The notes beneath the pieces were generated by a model that was not told the DNA's origin, did not search any database, and saw only the letters and a list, made by a program, of their open reading frames with translations. From NCBI RefSeq assembly GCF_053078305.1, contig NZ_CP166879.1: a stretch of 64,000 nucleotides of DNA. The stretch is one strand, 5' to 3'. Every line of letters begins with the position of its first letter. Position 1 is the stretch's first letter. Made by a program: the position numbers and the translations under genes. Below are positions 1-22,525 of the stretch, in pieces.

Positions 1-1203
1 GAGTTTTTGGGTGAGAAAGCCGCTTATGTTGCTGGCTGGATGTACTTCATCAACTGGGCGATGACGGGGATTGTTGATATTACCGCCGTCGCTCTGTATA
101 TGCATTACTGGGGTGCGTTTGGCGGCGTGCCGCAGTGGGTCTTTGCGCTCGCTGCACTTACCATCGTTGGCACCATGAATATGATCGGTGTGAAATGGTT
201 TGCGGAGATGGAGTTCTGGTTTGCGCTTATTAAAGTGCTCGCCATTGTGACCTTTTTGGTCGTGGGTACAGTGTTCCTCGGTAGTGGTCAGCCGCTGGAT
301 GGCAACACCACTGGCTTTCATTTAATCACCGATAATGGCGGCTTCTTCCCCCACGGTTTGCTGCCTGCGCTGGTGTTGATTCAGGGCGTAGTGTTTGCTT
401 TTGCCTCCATTGAAATGGTGGGTACAGCTGCCGGAGAATGTAAAGATCCGCAGACCATGGTGCCTAAAGCGATTAACAGTGTGATTTGGCGTATTGGCCT
501 GTTTTACGTCGGCTCCGTGGTGTTGCTGGTTATGTTATTGCCGTGGAGCGCGTATCAGGCGGGGCAAAGTCCGTTCGTGACGTTTTTCTCTAAACTGGGT
601 GTGCCATATATCGGCAGCATTATGAACATTGTGGTGCTGACCGCTGCCCTCTCCAGCCTGAATTCAGGTCTGTACTGCACCGGACGTATTCTGCGCTCAA
701 TGGCGATGGGCGGTTCCGCACCGAGTTTTATGGCGAAAATGAGTCGTCAGCATGTGCCGTATGCCGGGATTCTGGCGACACTGGTTGTGTATGTCGTCGG
801 CGTATTCCTCAACTATCTGGTGCCGTCGCGCGTATTTGAGATTGTGTTGAACTTCGCGTCGCTGGGAATCATCGCTTCATGGGCGTTTATCATCGTGTGC
901 CAGATGCGCCTGCGTAAAGCGATTAAAGCAGGCAAAGCAGCGGATGTCAGTTTTAAACTGCCTGGCGCGCCCTTCACTTCCTGGCTGACATTACTGTTTT
1001 TACTGAGTGTCCTTGTGCTGATGGCGTTCGATTACCCGAACGGGACTTATACTATCGCGGCGCTGCCGATTATCGGTATTCTGCTGGTTATAGGCTGGTT
1101 TGGTGTGCGCAAACGCGTTGCTGAAATTCACAGCACTGCGCCAGTCGTCGAGGAAGATGAAGAAAAACAGGAAATTGTGTTTAAGCCTGAAACGGCGAGC
1201 TAA
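1..1203 (+). CDS. ansP: L-asparagine permease (APC-family amino-acid permease), 5' end cut by window edge
   Basis: Reading frame of ORF 7..1203 stays open back to base 1 (the TTG at 7 is not a real start); polytopic hydrophobic translation ending EEDEEKQEIVFKPETAS; recognised as C-terminal ~400 aa of AnsP. Confidence 0.9.
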   Translation, partial: EFLGEKAAYVAGWMYFINWAMTGIVDITAVALYMHYWGAFGGVPQWVFALAALTIVGTMNMIGVKWFAEMEFWFALIKVLAIVTFLVVGTVFLGSGQPLDGNTTGFHLITDNGGFFPHGLLPALVLIQGVVFAFASIEMVGTAAGECKDPQTMVPKAINSVIWRIGLFYVGSVVLLVMLLPWSAYQAGQSPFVTFFSKLGVPYIGSIMNIVVLTAALSSLNSGLYCTGRILRSMAMGGSAPSFMAKMSRQHVPYAGILATLVVYVVGVFLNYLVPSRVFEIVLNFASLGIIASWAFIIVCQMRLRKAIKAGKAADVSFKLPGAPFTSWLTLLFLLSVLVLMAFDYPNGTYTIAALPIIGILLVIGWFGVRKRVAEIHSTAPVVEEDEEKQEIVFKPETAS

Positions 1204-1315: not shown

Positions 1316-2377
1316 TTACAGCGCAATACGAATCACATCGTCTGGCTGGGTAGCTTCCTGCTGTTTAGTGGATTTTTGTTTCACACTGACATACAGCGTT
1401 TTGCCATCGGCAGACAGCGCCAGGCTGTTCGGATGAGTCGGCGTATCGAACGTTTTCACCACTTTATAGCTTTTCGCGTCAATCACACTGACTTTACCTG
1501 CCTGACGATGCGTTACGTAGGCTTCATTACGCGCTGGGTTAAACAGCACAGCCAGTGATTCCGGTGCCGCAACCTTCGCCAGAATATTGCCATTACGGGT
1601 ATCGACCACTAACACTTCTGCGGCTTTAGAATCGGTGATAAATGCACGCTGCCTGGCGGTATCAAGGCTAATGTTGATAAAGAAGTGCTCTTTGCCGTCA
1701 TCCAGCAGCTTTTTACGGCTGAGGATTTTATTGTCGGCGGTGTCGATGGTAATCAATTCGCCGTCAGCGTTAGTGGTGTAAAGACGTTTGCCTTTGCTAT
1801 CCAGCGCCAGACCGGTACTCATTTTACCGGTGTTCTGGATGGCGGTTTTCAGTTTGATATTCTCGCCATCAACGACCCAAATCACGCTCTCTTTACCAAT
1901 ACCACTGATGTAAACGGTGTTCGTGGCATCATCAGCTACCAGCTCACGCGGTTGCAGCGGGCGCACCTCTTCCGTGCGCTTACGATCATCCAGCACCAGA
2001 CGGCCTTTCACTTCGCCCGTTTTGGCATCTATCGCCGTGACCGCGCTGTTTACGGTGTTACCAAACCACAACGTCTGAGTCGTGTTATTGATGGTGGCAC
2101 CAAACGGCTTGAGATCGTTATGGATCGCCTGCGTCACTTCCAGAGTGACCGGATCAAGACGATAAACCACGCCACCTTTATCCAGTTTGCGGCTTTGCGA
2201 AGTGGCGAGCCACAGCGCGTTTTCTTGCTGGCTATAAGCCATTTCGTAGGCACCTTTACCTACCGCTTTACGCAGCATTTCTTCTGCGGCCTGCGTACTG
2301 AATGATGAAGCAACAAGCAATGAACCTAACAGTAATGAACCACGCAGGCGCGATGAAAACAGATGACGTAAATGCAT
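1316..2377 (-). CDS. yncE: Periplasmic PQQ-like beta-propeller protein YncE
   Basis: 353-aa ORF; N-terminal signal peptide (LLLGSLLVASSFSTQAAEE); recognised as YncE. Confidence 0.9.
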   Translation of the reverse strand: MHLRHLFSSRLRGSLLLGSLLVASSFSTQAAEEMLRKAVGKGAYEMAYSQQENALWLATSQSRKLDKGGVVYRLDPVTLEVTQAIHNDLKPFGATINNTTQTLWFGNTVNSAVTAIDAKTGEVKGRLVLDDRKRTEEVRPLQPRELVADDATNTVYISGIGKESVIWVVDGENIKLKTAIQNTGKMSTGLALDSKGKRLYTTNADGELITIDTADNKILSRKKLLDDGKEHFFINISLDTARQRAFITDSKAAEVLVVDTRNGNILAKVAAPESLAVLFNPARNEAYVTHRQAGKVSVIDAKSYKVVKTFDTPTHPNSLALSADGKTLYVSVKQKSTKQQEATQPDDVIRIAL

Positions 2378-2461
2378 GACGACTCCCTTTGATGAACCGA
2401 TATTTTTGCTGCTTCACAATGCTTCGCTAAGCGTAATCATCGTTACGCTCTTGTTATAAAT

Positions 2462-2480
2462 GGGAATGGTAATCATTATT
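2462..2480. promoter_or_regulatory. Putative Fur box in yncE/yncD divergent promoter region
   Basis: gggaatggtaatcattatt matches about 15/19 of Fur consensus GATAATGATAATCATTATC; sits between an iron-associated gene pair (yncE, TonB-dependent receptor yncD). Confidence 0.4.
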
Positions 2481-2618
2481 TTCTCAAATGTGGAGCATTT
2501 CTTGCCGTTACGACTACAATTTTCTCAATTACTTAACGTATTGTGCCGTTTCATTTTCCATAAATTTACAATTTCATTACCATGACGGCGTTTTCCCATT
2601 CTTAACCTGGCTTTTTTC

Positions 2619-4721
2619 ATGAAGATTTTTTCCGTCCGACAGACCGTTTTGCCCGCCCTGCTTGTCCTTTCCCCCGTTGTTTTTGCCGCTGATGAACAGA
2701 CCATGATTGTCAGTGCCGCGCCGCAGGTGGTTTCAGAACTGGATACCCCTGCAGCAGTAAGCGTGGTGGATGGCGAGGAGATGCGCCTGGCAACACCGCG
2801 CATTAACTTGTCCGAATCACTGACCGGCGTGCCTGGTTTGCAGGTACAAAACCGGCAGAACTATGCGCAAGATTTACAGCTGTCGATTCGCGGATTTGGC
2901 TCCCGTTCCACTTACGGAATTCGCGGTATTCGCCTGTATGTGGACGGTATTCCCGCCACCATGCCCGACGGGCAAGGGCAAACATCCAACATCGATTTAA
3001 GCAGTGTGCAAAATGTGGAAGTGCTGCGTGGCCCCTTCTCTGCCCTGTATGGCAACGCGTCTGGCGGTGTAATGAATGTCACCACCCAGACCGGACAACA
3101 GCCACCAACCATTGAAGCCAGTAGTTACTACGGCAGTTTTGGCAGCTGGCGCTATGGGCTGAAAGCAACGGGCGCAACGGGAGACGGCACACAGCCCGGC
3201 GATGTTGATTACACCGTCTCAACCACGCGTTTTACGACCCACGGCTATCGTGACCATAGTGGCGCACAGAAAAATTTAGCCAATGCCAAACTGGGCGTAC
3301 GCATTGATGAAGCCAGCAAATTAAGCCTGATTTTCAATAGTGTGGATATCAAAGCAGATGACCCGGGTGGGCTAACCAAAGCAGAATGGAAGGCGAATCC
3401 ACAACAAGCGCCTCGTGCAGAACAGTACGACACGCGAAAAACCATCAAGCAAACTCAGGCTGGGTTGCGCTATGAACGTAGCCTGAGTTCGCGGGATGAT
3501 ATGAGTGTGATGATGTATGCCGGAGAGCGAGAAACGACCCAGTACCAGTCAATACCCATGGCGCCACAACTTAACCCGTCACATGCGGGCGGCGTGATTA
3601 CCCTGCAACGCCATTACCAGGGAATAGACAGCCGCTGGACACACCGTGGTGAACTGGGCGTTCCGGTCACGTTCACTACCGGCCTGAACTACGAAAACAT
3701 GAGTGAAAACCGCAAGGGCTACAATAACTTCCGCCTGAATAGCGGCATGCCGGAGTACGGGCAAAAAGGTGAGTTGCGTCGCGACGAACGCAATCTGATG
3801 TGGAACATCGATCCCTATTTACAGACGCAGTGGCAGCTGAGCGAAAAACTGTCGCTGGATGCTGGCGTGCGCTACAGCTCCGTGTGGTTTGATTCCAACG
3901 ACCATTACGTTACTCCGGGTAACGGCGATGACAGCGGTGATGCCAGTTATCACAAATGGCTACCAGCCGGATCGTTAAAATATGCAATGACCGATGCCTG
4001 GAATATCTATCTGGCAGCCGGGCGTGGTTTTGAAACGCCGACGATTAATGAGCTGTCTTATCGCGCTGATGGGCAAAGCGGTATGAACTTTGGTTTAAAA
4101 CCATCCACCAACGATACAATTGAGATCGGCAGTAAAACGCGTATTGGTGATGGGCTGCTTAGTCTCGCATTGTTCCAGACCGACACCGATGATGAAATTG
4201 TTGTCGATAGCAGTAGCGGTGGGCGTACGACTTACAAAAATGCTGGAAAGACCCGTCGTCAAGGCGCTGAACTGGCATGGGATCAACGTTTCGCGGGAGA
4301 TTTTCGCGTAAACGCGTCCTGGACCTGGCTTGATGCGACCTATCGCAGCAATGTTTGCAATGAACAGGATTGTAACGGTAATCGGATGCCAGGGATCGCC
4401 CGTAATATGGGCTTTGCGTCGATAGGTTATGTACCGGAAGATGGCTGGTATGCAGGCACGGAAGCGCGTTATATGGGCGATATTATGGCAGATGATGAAA
4501 ATACGGCCAAGGCGCCGTCTTATACTCTCATCGGCTTATTCACCGGGTATAAATACAATTACCACAATTTAACTGTGGATTTATTTGGTCGTGTCGATAA
4601 TTTATTCGATAAAGAATACGTTGGTTCTGTCATTGTCAATGAGTCAAACGGGCGATATTACGAACCTGCGCCCGGACGAAATTATGGTGTCGGCGTGAAT
4701 ATCGCATGGCGATTTGAGTAA
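2619..4721 (+). CDS. yncD: TonB-dependent outer-membrane receptor
   Basis: 700-aa ORF; signal peptide MKIFSVRQTVLPALLVLSPVVFA; plug/barrel-type sequence with aromatic-rich C-terminus; recognised as YncD. Confidence 0.92.
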   Translation: MKIFSVRQTVLPALLVLSPVVFAADEQTMIVSAAPQVVSELDTPAAVSVVDGEEMRLATPRINLSESLTGVPGLQVQNRQNYAQDLQLSIRGFGSRSTYGIRGIRLYVDGIPATMPDGQGQTSNIDLSSVQNVEVLRGPFSALYGNASGGVMNVTTQTGQQPPTIEASSYYGSFGSWRYGLKATGATGDGTQPGDVDYTVSTTRFTTHGYRDHSGAQKNLANAKLGVRIDEASKLSLIFNSVDIKADDPGGLTKAEWKANPQQAPRAEQYDTRKTIKQTQAGLRYERSLSSRDDMSVMMYAGERETTQYQSIPMAPQLNPSHAGGVITLQRHYQGIDSRWTHRGELGVPVTFTTGLNYENMSENRKGYNNFRLNSGMPEYGQKGELRRDERNLMWNIDPYLQTQWQLSEKLSLDAGVRYSSVWFDSNDHYVTPGNGDDSGDASYHKWLPAGSLKYAMTDAWNIYLAAGRGFETPTINELSYRADGQSGMNFGLKPSTNDTIEIGSKTRIGDGLLSLALFQTDTDDEIVVDSSSGGRTTYKNAGKTRRQGAELAWDQRFAGDFRVNASWTWLDATYRSNVCNEQDCNGNRMPGIARNMGFASIGYVPEDGWYAGTEARYMGDIMADDENTAKAPSYTLIGLFTGYKYNYHNLTVDLFGRVDNLFDKEYVGSVIVNESNGRYYEPAPGRNYGVGVNIAWRFE

Positions 4722-20779: not shown

Positions 20780-22525
20780 CATCCTCCACGCCCTGAAGGA
20801 CGTGGATCCCTGCTACGTTCAGGCTGTCGCCTGAATCATTTCGGTGGGTTCCTGCTTCAACGGGCGGCCTGACTGCACCATCTCTCCACAGGCAAGAACG
20901 GCGTGCCCCGCCGCTAAAATGTTACGAGCGCCATTTACATCGGCGTTCGCTGTATATCCACATACCTGGCATCTGAATTTACTTTGTGACAGGCGGTTCT
21001 CTTTCGCTGTATGACCACAGTACGCGCAACGCTGGCTTGTATACGCTGGCGGAACAGCAAGCACCTGACCGCCACGCCAGAGCTGCTTGTACTCAAGCTG
21101 GCGGCGCATTTCATACCAGCCCTGATCCAGTATCGAACGGTTTAAACCTGATTTTGCCCGGACATTGCGCCCCGGCTGGCTGACCGTACCCGCTGCTGAC
21201 TTTGACATGTTGCTGACCTTCAAATCCTCAATGACTATCATTGCGTGGTTTTTGCTGACGGCCGTTGTGACTTTGTGAAGGTAGTCCCTGCGGATATTTG
21301 CGATACAGGAATGCAGTCGCTGTATTTTGCGTTTCTGCTTCTGCCAGTTGTTGCTGAATTTGACCTTGCGGCTTAACTGTCGCTGAAGTCTCGCCAGCGT
21401 CTTCTGGTTTTTCTGAAAACTGTTTACAGGCTCAAAGACTGTGCCATCTGACAGCGTGGCGAGTTTAGCCACGCCAGCATCCAGCCCGACCATTGATGCT
21501 GAAGGGTGAGCCGGAGTGGATACTTCACTTTCTGTCTGAATACTGATGTACCACTTACCGCAGGACTGGCTGACAGTGACATTTTTCACAACACCCGTGA
21601 CCTGACGGCTATTCCGGTAGCGCATCCAGCCCAGTTTCGGCAGAAAAATACGGCTGTTTTCCTGATCGAGCTTAACGCCCTGCGGGTAGCGGAATGCATC
21701 ATTCTGTCCCCGCTTTTTGAATCGGGGAAAAGCAGCCCGCTTCCGGAAGAAGTTTTTGTAAGCCCGCTCAAGGTCTTTCAGTGACTGTTGCAATGGCTGT
21801 GAGGGAGAATCTTTAAGCCATTGCGTTTCAGTGGCATTTTTCCACTCAACCAGCCAGGAAGCCATTTTCCCGTAAGGGATGTATTTATTACCGGCCTCAT
21901 GATTCTCATTCTGACGTGCCAGAGCACGATTGAAAACGAAACGACATGCGCCTGCGAAGCGCCTCATTTCACACTCCTGTTGACCACCTGGTCTTAACTG
22001 GAATTTAAATGCCTGTAATCGTTTCACAGGTCAAATGATACTTTGGTCTGTGAAAAAAGAAACCGATATCCGGCGTGGAAGGCATTGTGTTTTCCTGATG
22101 CATGTTCACCTGGTCTTTGTCACCAGATACCGACGCCAGATTTTTGACCATGACGCGACAGAAAAACTACGCACTTACTTTTCAAATGTATGTGCTTATT
22201 TTGAAGCTGAACTGGTTGAAATGGATGGCGAACCAGATCACGTCCATTTGTTAATTAACTAACCTCCCAAACTGGCGATATCCAGTCTGGTAAACAGCCT
22301 CAAAGGCGTATCGGGTAGGTTACTGCGACGAGATCGACCAGATATTGCAGTCAGGTATTACTACAAAGGCGTTTTGTGGAGTCCTGGCTATTTTGCCAGT
22401 AGCTGCGGAGGTGCGCCAATATCCGCCATCCGTCAATACATTGAACAACAGCAAACACCTGGTCAGGTGGAAAACCGCGCCTTATATCCCCGCCCTGAAG
22501 GATGGGGTTTTACGGCGCACCGGAT
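20780..22525 (-). mobile_element. IS200/IS605-family insertion sequence (IS609-like), tnpA and tnpB divergent
   Basis: Divergent tnpB (20819..22027) and tnpA (22035..); subterminal imperfect hairpins sharing loop ccctgaagga near both ends (20785..20806 and about 22485..22505); no terminal inverted repeats, as expected for this family; boundaries approximate. Confidence 0.75.
20819..22027 (-). CDS. tnpB: TnpB (IS605 OrfB-family RNA-guided nuclease, OMEGA effector)
   Basis: 402-aa ORF; Ruv[17 protein letters not shown], Ruv[11 protein letters not shown], zinc finger CAYCGH...CQVCGY, Ruv[14 protein letters not shown] all present; N-terminus [13 protein letters not shown] typical of TnpB. Confidence 0.9.

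Follow-up and report, generated by a model that had tools for sequence, protein, structure and literature searches.

The segment at positions 2459-2483 of the window, by which we mean the whole stretch of 64,000 nucleotides that was analysed, is best explained, with a high degree of confidence, as a Fur operator of the yncE promoter. This operator is genuine, ordinary, already described and essentially one-sided. It lies within E. coli chromosomal DNA, a 3.6-kb segment around it being found in 5408 of the 5426 complete E. coli genomes, and the intergenic sequence in which it is embedded is identical to that of K-12 MG1655, together with 20 bp on each side. This intergenic region (2378-2618, 241 bp, 37% G+C) separates two divergent genes. 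The first is yncE (1316-2377, minus strand; RefSeq annotation), which codes for a periplasmic seven-bladed beta-propeller protein of 353 aa (NCBIfam equivalog NF052280, 563 bits). The second is pqqU (2619-4721, plus strand), as RefSeq currently names the former yncD, which codes for a TonB-dependent receptor of pyrroloquinoline quinone (PQQ) of 700 aa (NCBIfam equivalog NF041535, 1312 bits). The start codons at 2377 (minus strand) and 2619 bear out the position between yncE and yncD which had been proposed for a candidate Fur site in an earlier, sequence-only reading of this DNA.

The 19-mer singled out in that reading, at 2462-2480 in the classical Fur-box alignment, has been confirmed in coordinates and in match: GGGAATGGTAATCATTATT agrees with the consensus GATAATGATAATCATTATC at 15 of the 19 positions. 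It is the sole match of at least 15/19 in the 64-kb window, dinucleotide-preserving shuffles yielding 0.2 such matches per window, and the fraction of shuffled yncE/yncD intergenic regions that contain a match of this quality is 0.0022. Consensus counts are a crude measure, proven Fur sites spanning 11 to 17 of the 19 positions, and because counting alone is too weak we have built a Fur matrix de novo. Training used the ±50 bp around 18 strong CFT073 Fur ChIP-seq summits (Banerjee et al. 2020, Table S5A; two ChIP-seq column headings of this table, PMC7157518, look swapped), with the enterobactin-cluster sites included and yncE excluded; the summits iroN 1198978 and gpmA 803233, which fall outside promoters in NC_004431.1, were dropped. 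Seeded from arbitrary 19-mers, the EM search resulted in AATGATAATTATTATCATT (17.4 bits), which is the Fur box.

A matrix scan, which had been proposed as a check on the candidate along with the prospect that its score might fall below background, places the site at the top of the window. Across approximately 128,000 window positions the two highest scores both belong to 2459-2477 (minus strand, 18.0 bits; plus strand, 17.3 bits), the best score elsewhere in the window being 14.8 bits; the site therefore does not fall below background. Further overlapping matches are observed at 2465-2483 (11.4 and 10.1 bits). Genuine Fur sites scored by leave-one-out range from 11.7 to 28.6 bits, and the yncE site would rank 12th of 19 among them, so that it both matches the consensus and scores within the range of proven sites. 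Since the overlapping 19-mers at 2459-2477 and 2465-2483 score on both strands and are offset by 6 bp, the operator extends over approximately 2459-2483 and is slightly wider than first reported. Arrays of overlapping boxes at a 6-bp offset are usual for Fur.

We have then compared the site with its counterparts in related bacteria. A scan for YncE, taking one genome per species, returned 80 loci with YncE identities down to 71%, of which 78 were usable for the box scan; about 20 genera were sampled, Escherichia, Citrobacter, Salmonella, Enterobacter, Klebsiella, Raoultella, Kluyvera, Leclercia, Lelliottia and Atlantibacter among others. All 78 usable loci contain a match to the Fur matrix (14.3-26.3 bits, median 20.9), which outscores the rest of the locus (~6.7 kb of flank) in 76 of them, and the box is thus conserved at the orthologous position: in 75 loci it precedes the yncE ATG by 75-87 bp, and in the other 3 by 36-40 bp. 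The latter are L046, L052 and L054 (Pseudescherichia vulneris and relatives), and in the alignment of L046, which was inspected, the segment with the hairpin and the RyhB site described below is missing. When 63 distinct enterobacterial intergenic sequences are aligned, the box (~2459-2483) is the best-conserved non-coding block, with conservation at 2460-2482 on par with that of the yncE ribosome-binding site and start codon, and with an invariant core, TAATGATTA, at 2470-2478. Most genera have the version AATGATTACTATTCTCATT, which scores 23 bits. Escherichia has C at 2463 and 2468, where most other genera have T, and the matrix score decreases from 23 to 18 bits; the same substitutions turn the candidate yncE −10 hexamer from TACTAT to TACCAT. 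Within the species, 5409 of the 5426 complete E. coli genomes contain the 56 bp around the box, 3932 of them in identical form.

The divergent layout is kept in 64 of the 80 loci, those in which the yncD start is detectable, with a spacer of 229-269 bp. The tblastn filter detected no yncD start upstream of yncE in L018, L021, L025, L026, L028, L030, L033, L035, L036, L039, L040, L081 and L094, the loci of this kind comprising one E. coli, E. albertii, several Citrobacter, a Leclercia and a Pseudocitrobacter MAG. In L018, L039 and L081 yncD would be invisible because less than 350 bp of sequence is available upstream of yncE, and the others could reflect pseudogenes, rearrangements or an artefact of the filter. 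The Fur box is still present in these loci wherever the region could be scanned.

Published ChIP data, once mapped onto the window, evidence iron-dependent occupancy of the site by Fur in vivo, which was another of the checks proposed for it. The CFT073 ChIP-seq summit at 1711868 (height 845), listed for yncE/yncD_1 (Banerjee et al., PMC7157518), converts to window position 2476, inside the box, through an indel-free alignment in which a record position x corresponds to 1714344 − x of the window. The MG1655 ChIP-exo peak P44 (1521238-1521250), which is found in iron-replete cells only (Gao et al., PMC10164565) and which, according to that paper, is also present in Seo et al., converts to approximately 2456-2468 and is the intergenic yncE peak. 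In the MG1655 ChIP-exo sheet of PMC10164565 the gene names run one row off the coordinates from about P37 on, and the rows were re-assigned by coordinate. The conversion has been checked on the ydcM peak (1501790-1501808), which falls at 21898-21916 of the window, where a Fur-like site of 13/19 is located at 21895-21913; this site lies inside the TnpB-family insQ/ydcM open reading frame (20819-22027, minus strand), and its peak in MG1655 is reported as unlinked to differential expression (PMC10164565). In the literature on the yncE operator we have found no in vitro footprint or EMSA.

The expression data reported for yncE point in the same direction, with derepression in fur mutants ranging from 8- to 280-fold overall. 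In CFT073, RNA-seq gives a 147-fold increase in the fur mutant, 0.93-fold in the ryhB mutant and an 18-fold increase in the double fur ryhB mutant (PMC7157518), and in eight E. coli strains the log2 changes of fur mutants go from 3.1 to 8.1 (PMC10164565). By western blot, a fur knockout overproduces the YncE protein (PMC5120174), and yncE is induced 16-fold under iron limitation (PMC8896160). Fur binding upstream of yncE and a RyhB-dependent increase have been reported (PMC4676285), a Fur box in yncE has been predicted by matrix (PMC4145685), and a description of the box from 2003 is cited in PMC8896160. Given these published ChIP, RNA-seq, protein and box-prediction results, the yncE Fur site is genuine and already known; what had been put forward as a candidate was in fact documented, the box and the regulation of yncE having been reported since 2003.

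An intergenic region with 37% G+C could be thought to produce an AT-rich resemblance to the Fur consensus by chance and without any regulatory role, more so as four consensus positions are mismatched. Such an origin is refuted by the data and its probability is negligible: the composition-matched shuffles seldom reach the observed match, no other position of the window scores higher by matrix, the box is invariant across some 20 genera, Fur occupies it in two independent ChIP data sets, and yncE is derepressed in fur mutants to the extent given above.

On the other side of yncE, ansP (7-1203, plus strand) is convergent with it, and a GC-rich palindrome, TTGCCCGGC...GCCGGGCAA, occupies positions 1212-1234 between the two stop codons. 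In fur mutants ansP decreases 2.6-fold in MG1655 and 4.7-fold in W, with no drop in W3110, and read-through interference from the strongly derepressed yncE is a possible cause of the decrease.

The position of the box relative to the yncE promoter suggests how repression may be exerted. Inside the box, at 2466-2471 on the minus strand, sequence and alignment indicate a candidate −10 hexamer, which reads TACCAT in E. coli and TACTAT in most genera. Directly upstream of the box on the yncE strand, the alignment reveals an invariant block, CTCCAC(A/T)TT (2487-2495, minus strand), which contains the candidate −35 hexamer TCCACA (2489-2494) or may be the site of another factor. The spacing from TCCACA to TACCAT on the yncE strand is 17 bp. 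From these sequence features we infer a promoter with a start near 2459, which would be upstream of the covarying hairpin of the 5' UTR (2430-2449, see below). The hexamer TATAAC (2453-2458) was considered as an alternative −10 and rejected: it is poorly conserved, and the start it implies would fall inside the hairpin. Indeed, as the hairpin covaries, the yncE transcript must include position 2449, which argues against TATAAC. A generic promoter scan returned nothing on the yncE strand and one weak plus-strand match at 2413-2440.

Since the box would overlap the core promoter with either candidate −10, promoter occlusion is the best-supported mode of repression. Under iron-replete conditions Fe2+-Fur would occupy the array of overlapping 19-mers on the yncE core promoter and the bound repressor would keep RNA polymerase off it; when iron becomes scarce Fur would leave and yncE would be transcribed. 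In a different mode, yncE would be transcribed from a distal start near 2498, which may depend on MarA, SoxS or Rob, and Fur bound downstream of this start would act as a roadblock. This mode draws on a MarA site which, as far as the Reg-Seq supplement reports it, is listed in RegulonDB for yncEp and is reportedly placed there at −41.5. If this site corresponds to a marbox-like element that we note at 2531-2549 (minus strand), then transcription would start near 2498 and the Fur box would extend from +15 to +39. This element, ACGGCACAATACGTTAAGT in the yncE sense, matches 14 of the 15 specified consensus positions in our reading, is strongly conserved in the alignment (reading TAACnGCACATTGCGTTAA in other genera), and is flanked by the Fur box on one side and by the probable pqqU promoter on the other, around 50 bp upstream of the pqqU start that this promoter implies. 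It may be the RegulonDB MarA/SoxS/Rob site of yncE, or it may act on pqqU. Against the roadblock, a start near 2498 lacks recognisable or conserved −10 and −35 hexamers, the stretch 2498-2520 is poorly conserved, the Reg-Seq study did not recover the MarA site of yncEp, and the correspondence of the RegulonDB site to 2531-2549 is itself an assumption. We thus consider a roadblock improbable and, from the candidate hexamers and the start they imply, we infer that occlusion of the core promoter would be the mode by which Fur represses yncE.

Downstream of the implied start, the yncE 5' UTR contains two further conserved elements. The first is a 7-bp hairpin at 2430-2449 (minus strand), recovered as an RNAalifold consensus, with stems at 2443-2449 and 2430-2436 and a loop at 2437-2442. 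Across Enterobacteriaceae 93.4% of the alignment cells are paired and compensatory changes are observed in 7 of the 7 pairs; none of 500 shuffles reaches the observed values, and partners slid along the sequence are paired in 33-51%. In the literature on yncE we have found no earlier description of this hairpin. The second element, just 3' of the hairpin in the yncE sense, is a probable pairing site for the small RNA RyhB at 2408-2426 (minus strand), CGAAGCAUUGUGAAGCAGC, for which a duplex with RyhB nucleotides 41-58 is calculated at −20 kcal/mol; the calculation was restricted to the RyhB core, a run with full-length RyhB and the UTR having given an unrealistically long duplex. The site coincides with a conserved block which reads GGAAGC(G/A)ATGT in most genera and CGAAGCATTGTG in E. 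coli.

RyhB, which is itself Fur-repressed, has been shown to activate yncE by Ribo-seq and a lacZ fusion, and RIL-seq support for the RyhB-yncE pair is cited in PMC8896160. The complementarity at 2408-2426 fits this published activation, as well as the difference between the 147-fold increase in the fur mutant of CFT073 and the 18-fold increase in the fur ryhB mutant, and on sequence grounds 2408-2426 is probably the pairing site through which the activation takes place. As in other RyhB-activated mRNAs, such as shiA and cirA, complementarity between the 5' UTR of yncE and the single-stranded RyhB core goes along with published RyhB-dependent up-regulation. At low iron RyhB would pair with 2408-2426 and raise yncE expression further, so that Fur and RyhB would form a coherent feed-forward loop on yncE. 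On account of the RyhB site and of the published activation, Fur controls yncE twice, directly and via RyhB.

This arrangement resembles that of cirA, with which the literature groups yncE as combining Fur repression and RyhB activation: cirA also has a Fur box at its promoter, ChIP occupancy, strong derepression in fur mutants and an additional positive effect of RyhB. From the fur mutant to the fur ryhB mutant the derepression drops from 9.8 to 4.9 for cirA and from 147 to 18 for yncE. The two genes differ in two respects: CirA is known to be a receptor for siderophores and colicins, YncE being uncharacterised, and beside its RyhB site the UTR of yncE contains a conserved hairpin of its own.

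A distinct scenario results for the neighbouring gene. The function of the divergent pair had been taken to suggest iron control, with the substrate of YncD regarded as not established. The first part holds for yncE and not clearly for yncD, and the second is outdated: YncD is PqqU, a high-affinity TonB-dependent importer of PQQ (Hantke & Friz preprint; PMC12124388), as NCBIfam and RefSeq also have it. According to PMC7193533, PqqU has no part in iron uptake and is not under Fur regulation, the latter also being stated in the Hantke & Friz preprint, where deletion of yncE is without effect on PQQ-dependent growth.

Measurements in fur mutants are divided on pqqU (PMC10164565). Its expression is flat in MG1655 (log2 0.12, p = 0.39, from 32 to 33 TPM) and in W (log2 −0.10, from 47 to 48 TPM), while in the same samples yncE increases 8.6-fold and 39-fold, respectively. 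It rises in W3110 (log2 2.95, 7.7-fold, from 4-5 to ~32 TPM, p = 2.7e-51) and in 042 (log2 2.02, 4-fold), and these are the two of nine strains for which pqqU is listed as a Fur target, the W3110 peak being assigned to both genes. Full pqqU expression rows were examined for three strains, and in two of the three the gene is unaffected. In the uropathogenic strain CFT073 (L001, 1709622-1711725) pqqU is a frameshifted pseudogene, and yncE and the Fur box are intact.

With respect to the sequence, the Fur box is located 136-160 bp from the pqqU ATG. Conservation suggests a candidate pqqU promoter at 2555-2583 (plus strand), with TTTCCA (2555-2560) as −35, a 17-bp spacer and TACCAT (2578-2583) as −10, and these hexamers are more than 70 bp away from the Fur box. 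In the 100 bp adjoining pqqU no Fur box is found in any genus, the median best score being 2.7 bits against a shuffled median of 3.85. A second MG1655 ChIP-exo peak, P43 (1520944-1520980), converts to approximately 2726-2762, inside the 5' part of pqqU; it is observed in iron-replete cells only and, according to PMC10164565, is absent from Seo et al. Under this intragenic peak the matrix gives no match above 2 bits anywhere in 2619-2850.

These data bear on whether the box could be a truly shared, bidirectional Fur operator that represses both yncE and pqqU and ties PQQ import to iron status. Its arguments are the increases of pqqU in the fur mutants of W3110 and 042, the divergent arrangement kept across Enterobacteriaceae with its 229-269 bp spacer, and a review that counts yncD/yncE among head-to-head pairs with overlapping UTRs. 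However, a Fur box adjoins the yncE promoter and not both promoters, no second box accompanies pqqU, the gene is unchanged in MG1655 and W in spite of the strong response of yncE, and the two reports cited above state that PqqU is not Fur-regulated and carries no iron. The second unit, pqqU, is derepressed 4- to 8-fold in W3110 and 042, not in MG1655 or W, and in CFT073 it is a pseudogene. A fully shared operator is in our view unlikely, and the proposal of a Fur operator for the divergent pair holds for yncE, which is strongly repressed, and not clearly for pqqU. The operator would rather act essentially one way, with pqqU served by a separate proximal promoter region that contains no Fur box, and with a response of pqqU to Fur that is weak or confined to certain strains or conditions.

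Since pqqU rises in the fur mutants of W3110 and 042, strict one-sidedness is not proven. In wild-type W3110 yncE is at 18 TPM, being most tightly repressed in this strain (PMC10164565), and together with the response of pqqU in W3110 and 042 this makes a weak or threshold effect on pqqU possible. Tentatively, and with a rather low probability, the yncE operator would also repress pqqU in a weak, threshold-dependent manner, visible only at maximal Fur occupancy as in W3110 wild type. Such an effect could arise if pqqU had a distal start near the box, or through coupling to the very strong divergent yncE promoter by supercoiling or interference.

Known systems illustrate both sides of this arrangement. 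Like the fepA-fes, fepD-entS and fepB-entC operators of the enterobactin cluster, which carry the same motif and were among the training sites of the matrix, the yncE site is located in a short gap between divergent genes; loss of Fur, however, strongly derepresses the operons on either side of each enterobactin gap, for which several ChIP-exo peaks are reported, whereas the yncE/pqqU gap has one box cluster, near yncE, and pqqU is listed as a Fur target in two of nine strains. Like btuB, the TonB-dependent cobalamin receptor gene outside the Fur regulon, pqqU codes for an importer of a scarce cofactor and not of iron, and published descriptions have it as neither Fur-regulated nor iron-induced; it differs from btuB in adjoining a strong Fur operator and in showing Fur-dependent expression in some strains.

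As a discovery these results carry little weight, Fur control of yncE having been known since 2003 and repeatedly confirmed by ChIP and RNA-seq. Their value lies in the refinements: the gene next to yncE encodes the PQQ importer PqqU and no orphan iron receptor, the operator acts essentially in one direction, and the box overlies the probable −10 region of the yncE promoter. The Fur box, the covarying 5' UTR hairpin and the RyhB site together constitute a conserved regulatory module across Enterobacteriaceae. Should the threshold repression of pqqU be true, PQQ scavenging would be partly coupled to iron, against the current statement that PqqU is not Fur-regulated, and the universal pairing of yncE with pqqU would hint that the uncharacterised YncE shares a physiological role with PqqU.
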